In this document: positions 1 through 6,817 of the stretch, piece by piece
Layout of the letters: each line of letters opens with the position of its first letter
Position numbering within the stretch: position 1 is the first letter of the stretch
Source of the DNA: Escherichia coli
Lineage (GTDB): Bacteria; Pseudomonadota; Gammaproteobacteria; Enterobacterales; Enterobacteriaceae
DNA length: 31,047 bases
Strand: one strand, 5' to 3'
Assembly (NCBI RefSeq): GCF_003334815.1
Contig: NZ_QOWO01000043.1
Made by a program: the position numbers and the translations under genes
Notes under the pieces: model-generated
Database searches by the model: none
Told to the model about the DNA's origin: nothing
The model's input: only the letters and a program-made list of their open reading frames with translations

Positions 1-62
1 TTTTTCGTCTTGCGACGTTAAGAATCCGTATCTTCGAGTGCCCACACAGATTGTCTGATAAA

Positions 63-75
63 TTGTTAAAGAGCA
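63..75 (-). promoter_or_regulatory. rrn antitermination boxA (TGCTCTTTAACAA on - strand)
   Basis: Exact match to the boxA consensus in the rRNA leader, read on the minus strand. Confidence 0.8.
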
Positions 76-115
76 GTTGCGACGCGGCTTTCAGCTCACT
101 GTCGCGAGGTGGCGT

Positions 116-143
116 ATATTACGCTTTCCTCTTTCAGAGTCAA
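116..143 (-). promoter_or_regulatory. rrnE P2 promoter (-35 TTGACT, -10 TAATAT on - strand)
   Basis: Minus strand reads TTGACTctgaaagaggaaagcgTAATATacgcc; matches rrn P2 architecture and sits upstream of boxA. Confidence 0.7.
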
Positions 144-225
144 CCCTGAATTTCAGGATTTTTCTCTTCAACCGAACCGGCTGTTTGTGTGAAGTGATTC
201 ACATCCGCCGTGTCGATGGAGGCGC

Positions 226-275
226 ATTATAGGGAGTTCTCCGCAGGCCGCAATAGAAAAATTGCAGAAAAATGA
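226..275 (-). promoter_or_regulatory. rrnE P1 promoter (-35 TTGCGG, 16-bp spacer, -10 TATAAT) with A/T-rich UP element immediately upstream
   Basis: Minus strand reads TTGCGGcctgcggagaactcccTATAATgcgcc, preceded by tcatttttctgcaatttttctatt; typical rrn P1 core plus UP element. Confidence 0.75.
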
Positions 276-424
276 CTGACTGCTGCATTCCCCAGCAAAA
301 GCCCGCTTTATACCTTTTTACGCACAGAGTTATCCACAATCATCAATGTAATTTCTGTATTTTGCCCACGGTAACCACAGTCAAAATTGTGATCACCATT
401 GAAAGAGAAAAATTCGCGAGCGTT

Positions 425-440
425 GCGCAAACGTTTTCGT
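425..440 (+). promoter_or_regulatory. PurR operator (pur box) in purHD promoter
   Basis: GCGCAAACGTTTTCGT matches the 16-bp PurR box consensus (aCGCAAACGTTTTCnT); a TACAAT -10-like hexamer follows at 441-446. Confidence 0.7.
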
Positions 441-547
441 TACAATGCGGGCGAAAAATAAGGATGCCCCGTTAGGGGCGTTAGCTGAGTTTTTCGCGAA
501 AAATTCAGCTAACGCTCTCTGTAATAGTCAAATCCAGGGGATTTACC

Positions 548-2137
548 ATGCAACAACGTCGTCCAGTCCGCCGCGCTCTGCTCAGTGTTTCTGACAAAGC
601 CGGTATCGTCGAATTCGCCCAGGCACTTTCCGCACGCGGTGTGGAGCTGCTGTCTACAGGGGGCACTGCCCGTCTGTTAGCAGAAAAAGGTCTGCCGGTA
701 ACCGAAGTTTCCGATTACACCGGTTTCCCGGAGATGATGGATGGACGCGTGAAGACCCTGCATCCGAAAGTACATGGTGGCATTCTGGGCCGTCGCGGCC
801 AGGACGATGCCATTATGGAAGAACATCAGATCCAGCCTATCGATATGGTGGTTGTTAACCTGTATCCGTTCGCCCAGACCGTGGCCCGTGAAGGTTGCTC
901 GCTGGAAGATGCGGTTGAGAACATCGATATCGGCGGCCCAACGATGGTGCGCTCCGCCGCCAAGAACCATAAAGATGTCGCAATCGTGGTGAAGAGCAGC
1001 GACTATGACGCCATTATTAAAGAGATGGATGACAACGAAGGATCGCTGACGCTTGCAACCCGTTTCGACCTCGCCATCAAAGCCTTCGAACACACTGCCG
1101 CCTACGACAGCATGATTGCCAACTACTTCGGCAGCATGGTTCCGGCTTACCACGGTGAAAGCAAAGAAGCCGCCGGTCGCTTCCCACGCACGCTGAACCT
1201 GAACTTCATTAAGAAGCTGGATATGCGTTACGGCGAGAACAGCCACCAGCAGGCTGCCTTCTATATAGAAGAGAATGTGAAAGAAGCCTCCGTTGCTACC
1301 GCAACCCAGGTTCAGGGTAAAGCCCTCTCTTATAACAACATTGCCGATACCGATGCGGCGCTGGAGTGCGTGAAAGAGTTCGCCGAGCCGGCATGTGTGA
1401 TTGTGAAGCACGCCAACCCTTGCGGCGTGGCTATCGGCAATTCCATTCTTGATGCTTACGATCGCGCGTACAAAACCGACCCAACCTCCGCATTCGGCGG
1501 CATCATTGCCTTTAACCGCGAGCTGGATGCGGAAACCGCACAGGCCATCATTTCTCGTCAGTTTGTCGAAGTGATTATTGCGCCGTCCGCCAGCGAAGAA
1601 GCCCTGAAAATCACCGCCGCCAAACAGAACGTACGCGTTCTGACCTGCGGTCAGTGGGGCGAGCGTGTTCCGGGCCTCGATTTCAAACGCGTGAACGGCG
1701 GTCTGCTGGTTCAGGATCGTGACCTGGGGATGGTCGGTGCGGAAGAACTGCGCGTGGTGACCAAACGTCAGCCGAGCGAACAGGAACTGCGTGATGCGCT
1801 GTTCTGCTGGAAGGTGGCGAAGTTTGTGAAATCCAACGCTATCGTCTATGCCAAAAACAATATGACTATCGGCATTGGCGCGGGCCAGATGAGCCGCGTG
1901 TACTCCGCAAAAATCGCCGGTATTAAAGCGGCCGATGAAGGCCTGGAAGTGAAAGGTTCCTCGATGGCTTCTGACGCGTTCTTCCCGTTCCGCGACGGTA
2001 TTGATGCCGCCGCCGCTGCGGGCGTGACCTGCGTAATCCAGCCTGGCGGTTCTATCCGTGATGACGAAGTGATTGCCGCCGCCGACGAGCACGGTATTGC
2101 GATGCTCTTCACCGACATGCGCCACTTCCGCCATTAA
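548..2137 (+). CDS. purH: Bifunctional AICAR transformylase / IMP cyclohydrolase
   Basis: 529-aa ORF; N-terminal MGS-like domain ([17 protein letters not shown]...STGGTA) and AICARFT domain recognised; SD-like GGGGA upstream; followed by purD. Confidence 0.97.
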
Positions 2138-2148
2138 TGGAGCAATAG

Positions 2149-3438
2149 ATGAAAGTATTAGTGATTGGTAACGGCGGGCGCGAGCACGCGCTGGCCTGGA
2201 AAGCGGCCCAGTCGCCGCTGGTTGAGACTGTTTTTGTTGCTCCGGGTAATGCAGGCACTGCACTGGAACCCGCGCTGCAAAACGTTGCTATTGGCGTGAC
2301 CGATATCCCGGCGCTGTTGGATTTCGCACAAAACGAAAAGATTGATCTGACCATCGTCGGCCCGGAAGCGCCGCTGGTGAAAGGCGTGGTCGATACCTTC
2401 CGCGCCGCCGGGCTGAAAATCTTCGGCCCAACCGCAGGTGCGGCCCAACTGGAAGGCTCAAAAGCGTTTACCAAAGATTTCCTGGCCCGCCATAAGATCC
2501 CTACGGCGGAATACCAGAACTTCACCGAGGTAGAACCTGCGCTGGCGTATCTGCGTGAGAAAGGCGCGCCAATCGTCATTAAAGCGGACGGTCTGGCTGC
2601 CGGGAAAGGCGTTATCGTGGCGATGACGCTGGAAGAAGCGGAAGCGGCTGTTCACGATATGCTGGCGGGCAACGCTTTTGGCGACGCGGGTCATCGCATC
2701 GTTATCGAAGAGTTCCTCGATGGCGAAGAAGCGAGCTTTATCGTGATGGTGGACGGCGAGCATGTGCTGCCGATGGCTACCAGCCAGGATCACAAACGCG
2801 TAGGCGATAAAGATACCGGACCAAACACCGGCGGGATGGGCGCTTACTCCCCCGCGCCGGTAGTAACCGATGACGTTCATCAGCGCACCATGGAACGTAT
2901 TATCTGGCCAACCGTGAAAGGCATGGCGGCGGAAGGCAACACCTACACCGGTTTTCTCTACGCGGGCCTGATGATCGACAAACAGGGCAATCCGAAGGTT
3001 ATTGAATTTAACTGCCGCTTTGGCGATCCGGAAACCCAGCCGATTATGCTGCGCATGAAGTCCGATCTGGTTGAGCTCTGCCTGGCGGCCTGTGAAAGCA
3101 AACTGGACGAGAAAACGTCCGAGTGGGATGAACGCGCTTCTCTCGGCGTGGTGATGGCTGCGGGTGGATATCCGGGTGATTACCGCACCGGTGACGTGAT
3201 CCACGGCCTGCCGCTGGAAGAAGTGGCAGGCGGCAAAGTGTTCCACGCGGGCACAAAACTGGCGGATGACGAGCAGGTAGTGACCAACGGCGGGCGCGTA
3301 CTGTGCGTCACCGCGCTGGGTCATACCGTGGCAGAAGCGCAGAAACGCGCCTATGCCTTAATGACCGATATCCACTGGGACGACTGCTTCTGCCGGAAAG
3401 ATATCGGCTGGCGCGCTATCGAACGCGAGCAGAACTAA
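2149..3438 (+). CDS. purD: Phosphoribosylamine-glycine ligase (GAR synthetase)
   Basis: 429-aa ORF starting MKVLVIGNGGREHALAWK; ATP-grasp family; GGAG SD upstream; 11-nt gap after purH indicates an operon. Confidence 0.97.
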   Translation: MKVLVIGNGGREHALAWKAAQSPLVETVFVAPGNAGTALEPALQNVAIGVTDIPALLDFAQNEKIDLTIVGPEAPLVKGVVDTFRAAGLKIFGPTAGAAQLEGSKAFTKDFLARHKIPTAEYQNFTEVEPALAYLREKGAPIVIKADGLAAGKGVIVAMTLEEAEAAVHDMLAGNAFGDAGHRIVIEEFLDGEEASFIVMVDGEHVLPMATSQDHKRVGDKDTGPNTGGMGAYSPAPVVTDDVHQRTMERIIWPTVKGMAAEGNTYTGFLYAGLMIDKQGNPKVIEFNCRFGDPETQPIMLRMKSDLVELCLAACESKLDEKTSEWDERASLGVVMAAGGYPGDYRTGDVIHGLPLEEVAGGKVFHAGTKLADDEQVVTNGGRVLCVTALGHTVAEAQKRAYALMTDIHWDDCFCRKDIGWRAIEREQN

Positions 3439-4760
3439 CGCGACAGTTTTGCCAATAGCGTTTTGCGCGTGATCCCTAACTGACGGGCGGCTTCGGTTTT
3501 GTTGCCGCCCGTTTTCTCCAGCGCCGCCAGAATCACCTCTTTTTCCACTTCCACCAACGGCTGAATATCCTGACTTTGTCCCAGCGGGATCGGCGTACTG
3601 GCAATCGCCAGCGGCAGCTCGCGTTCGGAAATATATTCCCCGGTCAGCAGCACCACTGCCCGTTCCACCGCGTTTTCCAGCTCACGAATATTTCCCGGCC
3701 AGTCGTAATGAATCAACAGATCCATCGCCTGGGGCGTAAAACCTTTTACCGCCTTGCGATTACGCTCGGCAAAGCGCTGCAGAAAATGGCCAGCCAGCAG
3801 AGGGATATCTTCCCGCCGTTGCCGCAGCGATGGTACTTCAATCGCCACCACATTCAGGCGATAGTAGAGATCCTGGCGAAAACGCCCGGCATTCACCTCT
3901 GCGGCAAGATCGCGATGGGTCGCCGCAATCAGCCGGACATCAACCGAGATAATCTGGTTGCTACCGACACGCTGAACTTCGCGCTCCTGAATCGCACGCA
4001 GCAGACGCACCTGCATCATCGGCGAGATATCGCCAATTTCATCGAGAAACAGCGTGCCGCCGTCCGCCTCAACAAAGCGCCCTTCCCGGCGTTTATCGGC
4101 TCCAGTAAACGCCCCTTTTTCATGACCGAACAATTCAGATTCCAGCAAGGATTCGTTGAGTGCCGCACAGTTGAGCGTTACCAGCGGTTTTTCGCTACGT
4201 GCGCTACTGGCGTGAATCGCCCTGGCGACCAGCTCTTTACCGGTGCCGGAATCGCCGTGGATCAGTACCGTGGCTTCCGATGGCGCGACGAGGGCGATTT
4301 CACTGAGCAGGTGTTGCATCGCCGGGCTTTTACCGACCATACCGAACTGGCTGGCAGTCACCGCAGGTGTTTCAGCATCAATACTGTGCGTATGCGCGAG
4401 CGCTTTTTCCAGCGTCGCCTGTAGGTTATCGAAATCCAGCGGCTTGATGAGATAATCCAGCGCCCCAGTTTTCAGTGCCTCTACCGCCGTCTCGACGCTG
4501 GAGTACGCAGTCATAATCAGCACCGGAATTGCCGGGTTTAACGCTTTGATCTCTTTCAGCGTGGCGATGCCGTCCATCTCCGCCATTCGCACATCGCAAA
4601 GCACAAGATCAAAAACCTGTTCCCGCACCTGCTCCAACGCCTGTCGCCCGCTGTTCGCCAGCGCGACGTTATAGCCCCAGCCGCGCAGTAAAGCCTGCAA
4701 AATAGTGCAGTGGCTAATGTCATCATCCACCACCAGAATATCGATATTATCGTGCGTCAT
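3435..4760 (-). CDS. zraR: sigma54-dependent response regulator (NtrC family), zinc/envelope-stress system
   Basis: 441-aa ORF with receiver domain, AAA+ sigma54-activator domain including the GAFTGA motif ([17 protein letters not shown]), and C-terminal HTH; 4-bp overlap with zraS. Confidence 0.95.
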
Positions 4761-6154
4761 CCTTGTGGGTCCTTACGCGTAATATTGACCGGAAGCCAGA
4801 GGGTGAACGTTGAGCCTTTTCCCTCCTGGCTTGCGACCTGAATTGTACCACCGTGTTGTTCAACAATATTATGCACGACCGCCAGCCCCAATCCGGTGCC
4901 TTCGGCTTTAGTGGTGAAGTACGGAGTGAAGATGGCATCAAGCTGATCTGCCGCAATTCCCTTACCGCTGTCGGTAACGCTGATTTTCACGCCCGCGCCG
5001 CTTTCGCTGGCCGTCACGCTAATCACGCCATGCTGACCAATCGCCTGAATAGCATTGAGATAGAGATTCAACAGGACCTGAGTCAGCCTGTCCGGGTCGG
5101 CCTGAATTTCCGGTAATGTGTCGTTGGCGGTAAAGCGTAACTGGATCTCCCGGCTGTTTGCATCCTGACTTACCAGCTGTAATGAGTGGTTAATCAGCGT
5201 GTTGAGATCCACCGCCTGCAAAGCCAGATGCGTTGGCTTAACCAGTTCCAGCAACTCGCTTACCACGCGGTTTAAACGGTCGGCCTCTTTCGCCATCACC
5301 TGCGCCAGTTGATGCGCTTCTCCCCCTGCAGGCGCGCGCTCGGCAAAGTATTTCGCCAGTCCTTTAATCGAGGAAAGTGGGTTACGGATTTCGTGGGCAA
5401 CGCCTGCCGCAAGATGCCCCAGCGCCACCAGCTTCTCTTTGCGCTTCATTTCATCTTGTAGAAGCTGGCGCGAGCGCAGATAGCGGCGATACCAGAAGAA
5501 TGACAATACGCTTGCCAGCAAGACCGTCGCCAGGGCGAAGAGGATAATCAGGGTATTGCGCTTTTCCCCACTCTGGGTTGCAACCAGATCACTGGCATCA
5601 ACGGCGATAAAAATAGCCTGTTGTGCATCTACTTGTGGCACAGCTTTGCCGTTACAGCGCGGCATATTGTGCATTCCATGCCGCCAGGGCGCTGACATTG
5701 GCTGGAACAAACGATAGACCTCAAGTGCAGGCGTAGTTTCCGTTTTCCCAAGCAGCCGCCAGCGGGAGTTTTCCTCTGGCTTTAATTTCTGCATTTCATC
5801 CGGCGAATAGAGCGCACGCCCGACCTTATCGGGGTCGCTATGAAGAATAATGATGCCCTGCGCATCGGTGACTGCGAACCACAACACTCCCGGCTGTCCC
5901 GCCATCTCTTCCAGAAGCGCCTGTTGCTGTACATGGTGCATTCGCATCCCCATCCCTACGCGGCTTCCCGACTCCAGAGCGCGGATAAGCACATTACCTT
6001 TTTCCAGTAATGCCTGGCGGTCTGCCTCGCTTGCCCGCCCATAATCACGAATCACAGTTACCGCAAACAATCCCACCAGCCCAACAATGACCACGGGGAG
6101 GATCGCGCTTAACCATTTAGCTAAGGAGTCTTTAGAACGTTGCATAAAACGCAT
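4757..6154 (-). CDS. zraS: Sensor histidine kinase of the ZraSR two-component system
   Basis: 465-aa ORF; N-terminal TM segment, periplasmic domain, second TM, H-box (HEIRNPL) and HATPase domain (GTGLGL). Confidence 0.95.
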   Translation of the reverse strand: MRFMQRSKDSLAKWLSAILPVVIVGLVGLFAVTVIRDYGRASEADRQALLEKGNVLIRALESGSRVGMGMRMHHVQQQALLEEMAGQPGVLWFAVTDAQGIIILHSDPDKVGRALYSPDEMQKLKPEENSRWRLLGKTETTPALEVYRLFQPMSAPWRHGMHNMPRCNGKAVPQVDAQQAIFIAVDASDLVATQSGEKRNTLIILFALATVLLASVLSFFWYRRYLRSRQLLQDEMKRKEKLVALGHLAAGVAHEIRNPLSSIKGLAKYFAERAPAGGEAHQLAQVMAKEADRLNRVVSELLELVKPTHLALQAVDLNTLINHSLQLVSQDANSREIQLRFTANDTLPEIQADPDRLTQVLLNLYLNAIQAIGQHGVISVTASESGAGVKISVTDSGKGIAADQLDAIFTPYFTTKAEGTGLGLAVVHNIVEQHGGTIQVASQEGKGSTFTLWLPVNITRKDPQG

Positions 6155-6201: not shown

Positions 6202-6252
6202 TCTTTTATCAGCGCTTACCCTGCGCTGTAACACAAAGGCTTAAGTTTCAAT

Positions 6253-6298
6253 GAGTAAAAATGACTCGCTACCCGCAGCAGGCGAGTCATTTTTACTC
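6253..6298. promoter_or_regulatory. Upstream activating sequence: perfect 17-bp inverted repeat (GAGTAAAAATGACTCGC, 12-bp spacer), probable ZraR binding site
   Basis: 6253-6269 is the exact reverse complement of 6282-6298; located between the divergent sigma54 promoters of zraP and zraSR. Confidence 0.7.
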
Positions 6299-6340
6299 GT
6301 TTATCATGCCAGATTACCCGTCATATCAGCGTTTCATCGT

Positions 6341-6356
6341 TGGCACGGAAGATGCA
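6341..6356 (+). promoter_or_regulatory. sigma54 (-24/-12) promoter for zraP
   Basis: TGGCACggaagaTGCA matches the sigma54 consensus TGGCAC-N5-TTGCA; about 35 nt upstream of the zraP start. Confidence 0.75.
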
Positions 6357-6391: not shown

Positions 6392-6817
6392 ATGAAACGG
6401 AACACGAAAATTGCCCTGGTAATGATGGCGCTTTCAGCAATGGCGATGGGATCGACATCTGCATTTGCTCACGGCGGACACGGTATGTGGCAGCAAAATG
6501 CCGCGCCTTTGACCAGCGAACAACAGACAGCGTGGCAGAAAATCCATAATGACTTTTACGCTCAAAGCAGCGCACTGCAACAGCAACTGGTGACGAAGCG
6601 TTATGAATACAATGCCCTGTTAGCCGCGAACCCACCGGATAGCAGCAAAATTAACGCGGTCGCCAAAGAGATGGAGAATTTGCGTCAGTCGTTAGATGAG
6701 TTACGGGTGAAACGAGATATCGCGATGGCTGAAGCGGGTATTCCGCGCGGAGCCGGAATGGGCATGGGCTACGGCGGCTGCGGTGGTGGCGGTCATATGG
6801 GTATGGGCCACTGGTAA
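6392..6817 (+). CDS. zraP: Periplasmic zinc-binding envelope-stress chaperone
   Basis: 141-aa product starting MKRNTKIALVMMALSAMAMGSTSAFA (signal peptide) with GGAGGA SD at 6380-6385; Gly/His/Met-rich C-terminus. The ORF-track start at 6251 is an in-frame over-extension through the promoter. Confidence 0.93.
   Translation: MKRNTKIALVMMALSAMAMGSTSAFAHGGHGMWQQNAAPLTSEQQTAWQKIHNDFYAQSSALQQQLVTKRYEYNALLAANPPDSSKINAVAKEMENLRQSLDELRVKRDIAMAEAGIPRGAGMGMGYGGCGGGGHMGMGHW

Follow-up and report, generated by a model that had tools for sequence, protein, structure and literature searches.

A conserved sense-strand RNA stem-loop in the purHD leader of Escherichia coli and related enterobacteria

Introduction

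Among operons under PurR, purHD of Escherichia coli is a textbook case, and descriptions of its control name transcription only, acted on by PurR and, as has also been reported, by RbsR. Many other bacteria sense ZMP (5-aminoimidazole-4-carboxamide ribonucleotide, AICAR) with a riboswitch at exactly this position, the purH leader. Here we examine a near-perfect palindrome between the promoter and the start codon of purH in a 31,047-nucleotide (nt) stretch of E. coli DNA (contig NZ_QOWO01000043.1 of assembly GCF_003334815.1; hereafter the window, whose numbering we use). The window spans the rrnE-purHD-zraSR-zraP region in reverse orientation. We show that the palindrome corresponds to an RNA stem-loop of the purHD leader that is conserved, belongs to the sense strand, and occurs at a single locus.

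The closest described systems include two groups of RNAs. One is the ZTP (pfl) riboswitch (Rfam RF01750), which occurs in the purH and folate gene leaders of many bacteria as a structured, cis-acting RNA with stems of variable length and is the obvious physiological counterpart for control of purH. The E. coli element differs from it in being a simple hairpin plus a small hairpin, with no pseudoknot or conserved unpaired pocket and with its conserved nucleotides paired. The second group comprises leader hairpins that serve autogenous control or processing, such as hp2 of the rne 5′ untranslated region (UTR), the RNase III/PNPase hairpin of pnp, the thrS operator and the ribosomal-protein leaders. 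Like the purH element, these are single-locus 5′-UTR stem-loops conserved in Enterobacterales, in which part of the helix is sequence-specific and part is free, and their action is post-transcriptional. The purH element differs in having no similarity to a curated family and in belonging to an operon whose products are metabolic enzymes, for which we know of no reported RNA binding.

Results

The palindrome and the layout of the purH leader

The palindrome had been pointed out in an earlier note, made from the sequence alone, as a 36-base pair (bp) inverted repeat with 18-bp arms at 479-514 (cgttagctgagtttttcg|cgaaaaattcagctaacg), containing a single position that does not form a Watson-Crick pair and directly preceded by a small hairpin, GCCCC-GTTA-GGGGC, at 466-479 (gccccgttaggggc). 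Direct reading reproduced this description to the base. Paired positions sum to 993, and the one position without a Watson-Crick pair is G489/T504, which is G·U in purH-sense RNA and an A/C mismatch in antisense RNA. The placement of the palindrome between the PurR box and −10 region on one side and the purH Shine-Dalgarno (SD) sequence on the other also agrees with our coordinates. In a repeat search, the palindrome gained the pair 478/515, which gives 19-nt arms spanning 478-515 (95%). As C479 is common to the small hairpin and the palindrome, the two cannot both form fully at once. The probability of at least 17 of 18 complementary positions is 8.5e-10 per centre, corresponding to 2.6e-5 expected occurrences in 31 kb, and the best of 30 shuffles reached 14/18. 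Among the short-range inverted repeats of the window, the palindrome ranks second.

All leader features described here are on the + strand, except that no strand was assigned to the PurR operator. This operator, GCGCAAACGTTTTCGT (425-440), was located by pattern search and is part of the established control of purHD transcription; PMC3159470 lists the same 16-mer, in reverse complement, as the PurR site of purH-purD. The −10 hexamer of the purHD promoter, TACAAT (441-446), directly adjoins the PurR box here and in relatives, where its variants (TACAAT, TAAAAT, and TAGAAT) all fall within the −10 consensus. Placed from this conserved hexamer, transcription would start at 453 (±2 nt), which converts to about position 4,207,627 of MG1655, giving purHD a 5′ UTR of about 95 nt. 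The main hairpin (479-514) would then lie about 25 nt after the start of the transcript, and it ends 33 nt before the start codon at 548. Its basal 10 bp, CGUUA-GC-UGA/UCA-GC-UAACG, are conserved, and its apical part, GUUUUUCG/CGAAAAAU, is lineage-specific. The small hairpin, which we call P1 (GCCCC-GUUA-GGGGC in RNA, 466-479), abuts the main stem. The G-run at 475-478, the 5′ foot of the main stem, can pair either with CCCC at 467-470, as in P1, or with CUCU at 515-518, as an extension of the stem. The 3′ foot and its flank, GCUCUCUGUAA (514-524), are pyrimidine-rich and resemble a boxA at positions 1-5 only. The rest of the leader (515-547) is nearly invariant in Enterobacteriaceae and carries the SD sequence AGGGGA (536-541) as well as a local SD hairpin, AAAUCC (530-535)/GGAUUU (539-544), which is invariant in that family. 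The 108-nt leader folds as RNA with z = −4.2, and the fold energy of the main hairpin in E. coli is −19 to −26 kcal/mol.

Two further features of this region were considered. The 9-mer GCGAAAAAT occurs both at 451-459, at the inferred mRNA 5′ end, and at 497-505, in the apical half of the right arm. The mRNA 5′ end could therefore rival the right arm for UUUUUCGC (490-497), to which it is an 8-bp perfect complement; the duplication is present in Escherichia and weaker in Citrobacter. A leader peptide was rejected: the ATG at 445 falls in the −10 region and so precedes the inferred start, and the UAA of the arm does not close any conserved open reading frame.

The stem is conserved and covaries in four enterobacterial families

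We searched 5,426 complete E. coli genomes with the 91 bases around the element, requiring a full-length match of at least 95% identity, and found the region in 5,420. The median of two matching places per genome was taken to represent the two strands of one palindromic locus; the element is single-copy, at one locus per genome. Repetitive extragenic palindromic (REP) sequences and bacterial interspersed mosaic elements (BIMEs) are likewise imperfect palindromes of about 35 bp in E. coli intergenic regions. The purH element differs from these in its single copy, in keeping its position upstream of purH across families, and in lying in a 5′ rather than a 3′ UTR. A repeated palindrome of the REP type or of the miniature inverted-repeat transposable element (MITE) type was rejected on the basis of copy number.

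A survey with one genome per PurH-containing species yielded 80 loci. The leaders of Enterobacteriaceae, Erwinia/Pantoea, Yersinia/Rahnella, and Dickeya/Brenneria keep the pattern GGG(R)CGUUA-NN-UGA ... UCA-NN-UAACGCUCU; the basal stem kept in the four enterobacterial families is GGG-CGUUA-NN-UGA ... UCA-NN-UAACG-CUC. Between the arms, the sequence is unrelated and lineage-specific but again self-complementary. The arm-to-arm span ranges from 36 to 100 nt, with values of 36, 37, 43, 47, 53-69, 81, 87, and 100 nt depending on the species: 36 nt in Escherichia and Citrobacter, 43-47 nt in Cedecea and some Enterobacter, 53-69 nt in Yersinia, Pantoea, Erwinia, and Dickeya, and 81-100 nt in Cedecea neteri and Rahnella.

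Covariation was assessed in an alignment of 27 distinct leaders, drawn from Enterobacteriaceae, Erwiniaceae, Yersiniaceae, and Pectobacteriaceae, that covered the 19 basal pairs and had GAAA in place of the apex. In this alignment, in which the apex was thus trimmed and the pairing register was chosen from the sequences themselves, 89.5% of cells were paired. Changes on both sides were found at 9 of the 19 pairs (34 cells); the sixth stem pair, for example, occurs as G-C, C-G, U-A, and U·G. None of 500 shuffles reached the observed value on any of five measures, and sliding the partner by 1-3 columns reduced pairing to 29-47%. The G-run pairs (G-C, G·U, and G-C, columns 1-3 with 42-44) were kept in 20-26 of the 27 leaders. 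Column 10:35 was unpaired in 12 of the 27, indicating that a defect is tolerated there. The arms, examined in the purH upstream regions of Enterobacteriaceae as the earlier note had suggested, are thus both kept and covarying, and they are so in four families.

Conservation extends beyond the hairpin. In seven genera with leaders of equal length, identity was 94-100% at 515-547 and 83-97% in the hairpin, while third codon positions of purH were only 67-79% identical; the whole leader is therefore under purifying selection. P1 was found in most Enterobacteriaceae, Erwiniaceae, and Yersinia, with varying loops and a few compensated changes in its stem (GCCTC/GAGGT and TCCCG/CGGGA); our script did not find it in Rahnella, Dickeya, or Y. 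nurmii.

The conserved structure is that of the sense-strand RNA

The earlier note had offered both an RNA leader stem-loop and a DNA operator for a dimeric regulator as interpretations of the palindrome. The first is borne out and the second is not. Besides the covariation of the arms in four families and the exchange of one self-complementary interior for another, both wobble pairs and fold energies favor the sense strand. Wobble cells numbered 54 G·U versus 11 A·C on the mRNA strand, and of 29 distinct hairpins, 25 had their more stable fold on the sense rather than the antisense strand (Wilcoxon p = 3e-4). A covariance model built from the alignment scored the + strand above the − strand by 10-25 bits in every species, with 55.9 and 40.1 bits, respectively, in E. 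coli. The palindrome is therefore very probably the DNA image of a conserved sense-strand RNA structure.

A role at the DNA level could take the form of an operator for PurR, RbsR, or another dimeric regulator, or of a cruciform that absorbs supercoiling from the divergent rrnE promoters. The perfect dyad symmetry and AT-rich centre are in keeping with such a role, and repression of purHD by RbsR has been reported (Shimada 2013, as cited in PMC10912719 and PMC5601083). The arms, TCAGCTAAC, also loosely resemble the RbsR half-site TCAGCGAAAC. With the LacI-family operators of purHD, namely the PurR box and the RbsR operator TCAGCGAAACGTTTCGCTGA (the rbsD operator, read at 271-290 of locus L082), the element shares dyad symmetry, a place in the control region of an operon with two LacI-family repressors, and TCAGC..AAC in its arms. 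However, these half-sites face outward, opposite to the LacI-family arrangement, and the palindrome centre, TTTCG|CGAAA, has the reverse polarity of the PurR box with its central CG and inward-facing half-sites. Neither consensus is matched. When the 400 bp upstream of purH were searched with the PurR box ACGCAAACGTTTGCGT, allowing up to three mismatches, only 425-440 matched, the real PurR box, 39 bp upstream of the palindrome; the RbsR core GCGAAACGTTTCGC had no match with up to three mismatches anywhere near purH. The variable distance between the arms and the unconserved centre exclude an operator of fixed geometry, and a DNA operator was rejected on these grounds. Wobble bias and strand-specific scores also fit RNA rather than a two-stranded cruciform. 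Finally, the contigs of Vibrio and other orders, which carry a hairpin of their own (see below), run at least 1.5 kb further upstream of purH, whereas enteric contigs end at a presumed rrn repeat. Given the strand bias, and since the analogous Vibrio hairpins do not lie beside a contig-ending rrn operon, a cruciform driven by rrnE is unlikely.

The element matches no Rfam family

The earlier note did not recognize the palindrome as a named purHD element, and our searches lead to the same answer. Rfam, searched at E ≤ 10 over window positions 1-1200, gave no family match to the element, the ZTP riboswitch included; the sole overlap was a chance microRNA hairpin that scored 23.8 bits against a gathering score of 76. 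At E ≤ 0.5, Rfam gave nothing in 13 related loci. The RefSeq record of MG1655 has no annotation between purH and rrsE, and a purH or purHD leader structure is not described in the searchable literature, a scope outside which lie the purHD sequence papers of 1989-90, which may mention dyad symmetry. The element is thus an undescribed conserved enterobacterial 5′-UTR structure. Across the 80 loci and the 31-kb window, the covariance model matched purH leaders only. With filters off, a search of 86 kb gave no match at purA, hflD-purB, purC, purMN, guaBA, glyA, purL, purEK, folD, cvpA-purF, or purT, and the best score outside purH was 11.6 bits (E about 1) versus the 55.9 bits at purH.

Several other identities were considered and rejected. 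An intrinsic terminator or attenuator on the + strand would lack a U-tract, as the E. coli tail is CUCUCUGUAAU; tails in Pantoea and some Vibrio are U-rich. At the hairpins of E. coli, locus L022 (Pantoea/Erwinia), Dickeya (L019), and Yersinia (L030), no terminator-like site was found on the + strand by a scanner that accepts only loops of 3-8 nt and could overlook stems that are long and imperfect. On the − strand, the scanner flagged GCCCCTAACGGGGC + ATCCTTATTT. For a terminator or small RNA on that strand, however, the U-run begins several nucleotides past the stem and is not kept outside Enterobacteriaceae, and the wobble bias and model scores disfavor the − strand. Reading the CUGA/UGAUG of Erwiniaceae arms as a kink-turn or box C/D-like motif would place tandem G·A pairs in a register that breaks the basal helix, and there is no 3-nt bulge. 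CsrA was considered because of GGA motifs at 462-464 and in the SD sequence; we did not find evidence from crosslinking and immunoprecipitation (CLIP) for it. As a separate observation, UACAGAGG of the small RNA Spot 42 (about nt 7-16) can pair with window positions 513-523 (−10.7 kcal/mol). The seed of 8 bp does not exceed chance level, and we found no literature support for this pairing.

Predicted coupling to the ribosome-binding site

In minimum free energy (MFE) and consensus folds of Enterobacteriaceae leaders, the G-run at 475-478 leaves P1 and extends the main stem with CUCU at 515-518, which frees CCCC at 467-470 to pair with GGGG of the SD sequence. The RNAalifold consensus likewise picks the stem extension over P1. 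These folds raise the possibility of a translational switch, in which the G-run would alternate between its CCCC and CUCU partners and the freed strand would pair with the SD sequence, toggling purH translation. That P1 and the extension exclude each other and are each conserved, and that the local SD hairpin is invariant in Enterobacteriaceae, would fit such a switch. Against it, no pair of the long-range CCCC:GGGG helix shows changes on both sides in the consensus alignment. The predicted SD pairing also shifts with the 3′ boundary and with added coding sequence; when 28 nt of coding sequence were included, forced anti-SD pairing was 3 kcal/mol worse than forced P1. Moreover, deletion of the hairpin in silico left the predicted unpaired probability of the SD-AUG region unchanged (0.49 vs 0.48; higher in 16 of 31 leaders), and outside Enterobacteriaceae the SD sequence is predicted to be mostly open. 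As accessibility of the SD sequence does not move upon deletion, the hairpin behaves in these models as an autonomous module, and the results do not support a direct switch at the SD sequence. Long-range pairing between GGAU (462-465) and AUCC (532-535) was also considered and was rejected because GGAU is not kept in several Enterobacteriaceae.

A boxA-like 3′ flank, weak in E. coli

In a manner recalling the boxB-boxA sites of rrn operons and lambda nut and the suhB boxA (PMC5725501), the purH element has a hairpin followed by (C/U)GCUCU(U), and it lies less than 50 nt from a start codon. Using the rRNA boxA, GCUCUUUAACA, and the consensus GYTCTTTAANA from the same work (Baniulyte et al. 2017), we found that E. 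coli GCUCUCUGUAA agrees with the rRNA boxA at 7 of 11 positions, keeping C4 and differing by U6C, A8G, and A9U, and that the stem takes in the beginning of the motif. This sequence is invariant in E. coli and all core Enterobacteriaceae. In suhB, the boxA double mutant C4T/T6C is inactive, and U6C is one of its two changes; purH is not among 407 predicted boxA genes (PMC5725501). Of the 10 positions that the consensus specifies, 9 are matched by the flank in Dickeya (GCUCUUUAAAG) and likewise in Brenneria (GUUCUUUAAUG). In Pantoea and Erwinia, the flank is CGCUCUUA(C), which we take to be the lambda-type form of boxA.

A Nus-factor site is conceivable on this basis, with the hairpin and CGCUCU... 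forming a boxB-boxA-like module that would load NusB/NusE (S10) and alter Rho termination or purHD translation. The Dickeya, Brenneria, Pantoea, and Erwinia flanks, the distance to the start codon, and a critical C4 that is kept everywhere all favor this. However, core Enterobacteriaceae carry an invariant sequence with the U6C change, purH is missing from the boxA list, the putative boxA has its first three nucleotides base-paired within the stem, and flanks of the Vibrio type have no G1.

Post-hairpin sequences close to the boxA consensus, GCTCTTTAAAG and GTTCTTTAATG, were noted at 511-521 of L019 (Dickeya) and at the equivalent site of L020 (Brenneria), and the Pantoea/Erwinia loci L021, L022, L026, and L028 have CGCTCTTA(C) after the hairpin; the version in Enterobacteriaceae is degenerate. 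Judged from these motifs, purH may be under Nus-factor control in Dickeya, Brenneria, and Pantoea/Erwinia.

An analogous hairpin in other orders

A long hairpin 30-90 nt upstream of the purH start codon was also found in Vibrionaceae (Vibrio, Aliivibrio, Photobacterium, and Grimontia), Aeromonas, Shewanella, and Ferrimonas. It occurs in loci L041-L051, L053, L062, L068, L071, and L078, at about 30-150 nt upstream of the ATG (locus position 1501). Its foot, RGG(G)YRUUU ... AAAYRYCYU, is G-rich on the 5′ side and pyrimidine-rich on the 3′ side, and the hairpin has a recurrent internal A/C mismatch, a variable apex, and a span of 45-88 nt. Over 16 basal pairs, 85.7% of cells were paired and 8 pairs were changed on both sides, and none of 500 shuffles reached the observed value on four of five measures. 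No Rfam family matched this hairpin, and the enteric covariance model does not pick it up. It is an analogue, and possibly a homologue, of the enteric hairpin. Pasteurellaceae purH leaders are short and have no such hairpin. A motif, CUCUCUGU, recurs 3′ of leader hairpins, as UAACGCUCUCUGUAAU in E. coli (window 515-522), UAACUCUCUGUGAAU in L047 (about −32 from the ATG), and GGGGACUCUCUGUGU in Aeromonas; in L068 and L078 it lies at about −60.

Discussion

The best explanation of these observations as a whole, which we put forward tentatively and at somewhat less than even confidence, is that the element is a self-contained cis-acting RNA module with a factor-recognized foot that changes the fate of purHD mRNA. 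The hairpin folds independently, with a frozen lower part (the G-run, CGUUA..UGA with UCA..UAACG, and CUCU) and an upper part that drifts in sequence and length. In this model, it would act in cis at the RNA level, in addition to PurR repression. The sequence-invariant foot would be read by a trans-acting RNA-binding protein, for which a ribonuclease or one of the operon's own products would be candidates, and the outcome would be altered stability, processing, or premature termination of purHD mRNA. The specific proposal that the foot is the recognition site of a trans-acting factor setting mRNA fate is one we hold with a little less assurance. It is nonetheless the likeliest function, because the foot keeps its sequence, in contrast to the covariation or drift seen elsewhere in the hairpin, and because no SD interaction is predicted. 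Such a combination of fixed foot, freely varying apex, and occurrence at one locus is the pattern of autogenous or protein-operator RNA sites, as in the ribosomal-protein, thrS, rne, and pnp leaders. The element does not appear to act through occlusion of the ribosome-binding site, intrinsic termination, or a DNA operator.

Other readings of the same hairpin have to be set against this one. It could matter as structure only, as a passive rod stacked on P1 that hinders 5′-end-dependent access or scanning by RNase E, or leaves Rho without a long unstructured stretch to load on in the 95-nt leader, and thereby stabilizes purHD expression. The autonomous and very stable fold, an apex that varies freely, as expected if stability alone counts, the lack of predicted coupling to the SD sequence, the analogous hairpins in other orders, and the unrelated long hairpins that Mangrovibacter and Tatumella have at the equivalent place are all consistent with a passive barrier. 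We nevertheless consider it unlikely, as it leaves unexplained why five basal pairs and their flanks are sequence-invariant in four families while other stem pairs covary, and as it is set back from the very start of the transcript, with about 13 nt left single-stranded ahead of it by the inferred start. The translational switch, which the MFE folds suggest and the deletion and covariation results oppose, is less probable again, and we think it quite unlikely.

RNase III processing occurs in the pnp, rnc, and adhE leaders, and cleavage of the roughly 22-bp coaxial helix, which is longer in other genera, could start decay or activate translation. The E. coli helix of 16-17 bp plus a 4-5-bp extension reaches the RNase III helix length of about 20 bp if the extension is counted, Yersinia and Pantoea have 25-28 bp, and a free apex over a conserved lower stem is compatible with such a site. 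Stems in Citrobacter and Enterobacter, however, have a central mismatch and are weak (−12 kcal/mol). In addition, the only purH-rrsE site among those listed in Gordon et al. 2017 (PMC5371410) lies in the rrnE leader, at a distance of about 340 nt from the start of purH, and carries the label rRNA; a site in the purH leader is not among the sites listed there. We regard RNase III cleavage as distinctly unlikely, and we give still less credence to the Nus-factor site, in view of the invariant U6C version in core Enterobacteriaceae. An operator or cruciform is the least probable of these readings and, given the spacing, centre, and strand bias described above, very improbable. The probability that remains after these readings goes to the absence of a function.

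Several points weigh against a factor-read RNA module. The placement of the element inside the transcript depends on a start deduced from the −10 hexamer. The shuffle statistics overstate independence, since the leaders are phylogenetically related. The enteric motif is missing in Photorhabdus, Morganella, Budvicia, Edwardsiella, Tatumella, Rosenbergiella, and Mangrovibacter, some of which have unrelated hairpins instead, and the element must therefore be dispensable in some lineages. We saw no premature 3′ end in the purH leader among the published entries covered, and no RNase III site there among the published sites listed. Lastly, the frozen foot could instead reflect alternative pairing of the G-run with P1 or CUCU, or an overlapping boxA-like signal.

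Conservation above that of synonymous sites, covariation in four families, and an analogue in three further orders suggest an unexamined post-transcriptional layer of purHD control, which would act at the step that consumes AICAR (ZMP). Even if the hairpin is only a stabilizing rod, it is a well-supported conserved enterobacterial leader structure and a candidate Rfam family. Its interest lies in its position, upstream of purH in E. coli, and in the analogous hairpins that widen the pattern across γ-proteobacteria. A broader and speculative proposal, to which we assign a low probability, is that the enteric and Vibrio-type hairpins are two forms of one ancient cis-regulatory RNA of γ-proteobacterial purH leaders. 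A dedicated factor would recognize this RNA, with PurH, PurD, or a sensor of AICAR (ZMP) or folate status as candidates, and bacteria without a ZTP riboswitch would thereby have post-transcriptional control of AICAR transformylase.

Additional features of the window

Downstream of the leader, purH (AICAR transformylase/inosine monophosphate cyclohydrolase; 548-2137, + strand; NCBIfam TIGR00355, 908 bits) is followed by purD (2149-3438, + strand; TIGR00877, 631 bits). Upstream, the rrnE promoter-leader region occupies the first ~290 bases of the window on the − strand and contains a sigma-70-like promoter at 143-116 (−). Between the −10 hexamer and the inferred start of purHD lies the discriminator GCGGGC (447-452, + strand), which is GC-rich yet variable among relatives and adjoins the rrnE promoters. 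Discriminators rich in GC are characteristic of promoters under stringent control. A perfect DnaA box, TTATCCACA (330-338), separates the upstream region of rrnE from the promoter of purH, and a short palindrome with a GATC (Dam) site, AATTGTGATCACCATT, lies at 385-400, which places it about 60 bp ahead of the inferred start of purH.

Next to purH, the promoter-leader of rrn gives hits to the Rfam family Ysr197 ("Yersinia sRNA 197") that stay below its gathering score, at 53-286 (−) in E. coli, 165-421 (−) in L021 (Pantoea), 56-301 (−) in L030 (Yersinia), and 87-318 (−) in L019 (Dickeya). What this family describes appears to be the leader of rRNA operons and not a small RNA in its own right. 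In almost all Enterobacterales draft genomes (L001-L040), the contig stops 150-680 nt upstream of purH; these early ends fit a conserved adjacency of purH and rrn.

At the other end of the region, zraR (3435-4760) and zraS (4757-6154) on the − strand and zraP (6392-6817) on the + strand were assigned from NCBIfam equivalogs and the MG1655 annotation. The best inverted repeat of the window, GAGTAAAAATGACTCGC ... GCGAGTCATTTTTACTC (6250-6301), is in the divergent zraS-zraP intergenic region and is followed, upstream of zraP, by a sigma-54-like element, TGGCAC-N5-ATGCA (6341-6356). These are presumably the known ZraR sites and promoter.

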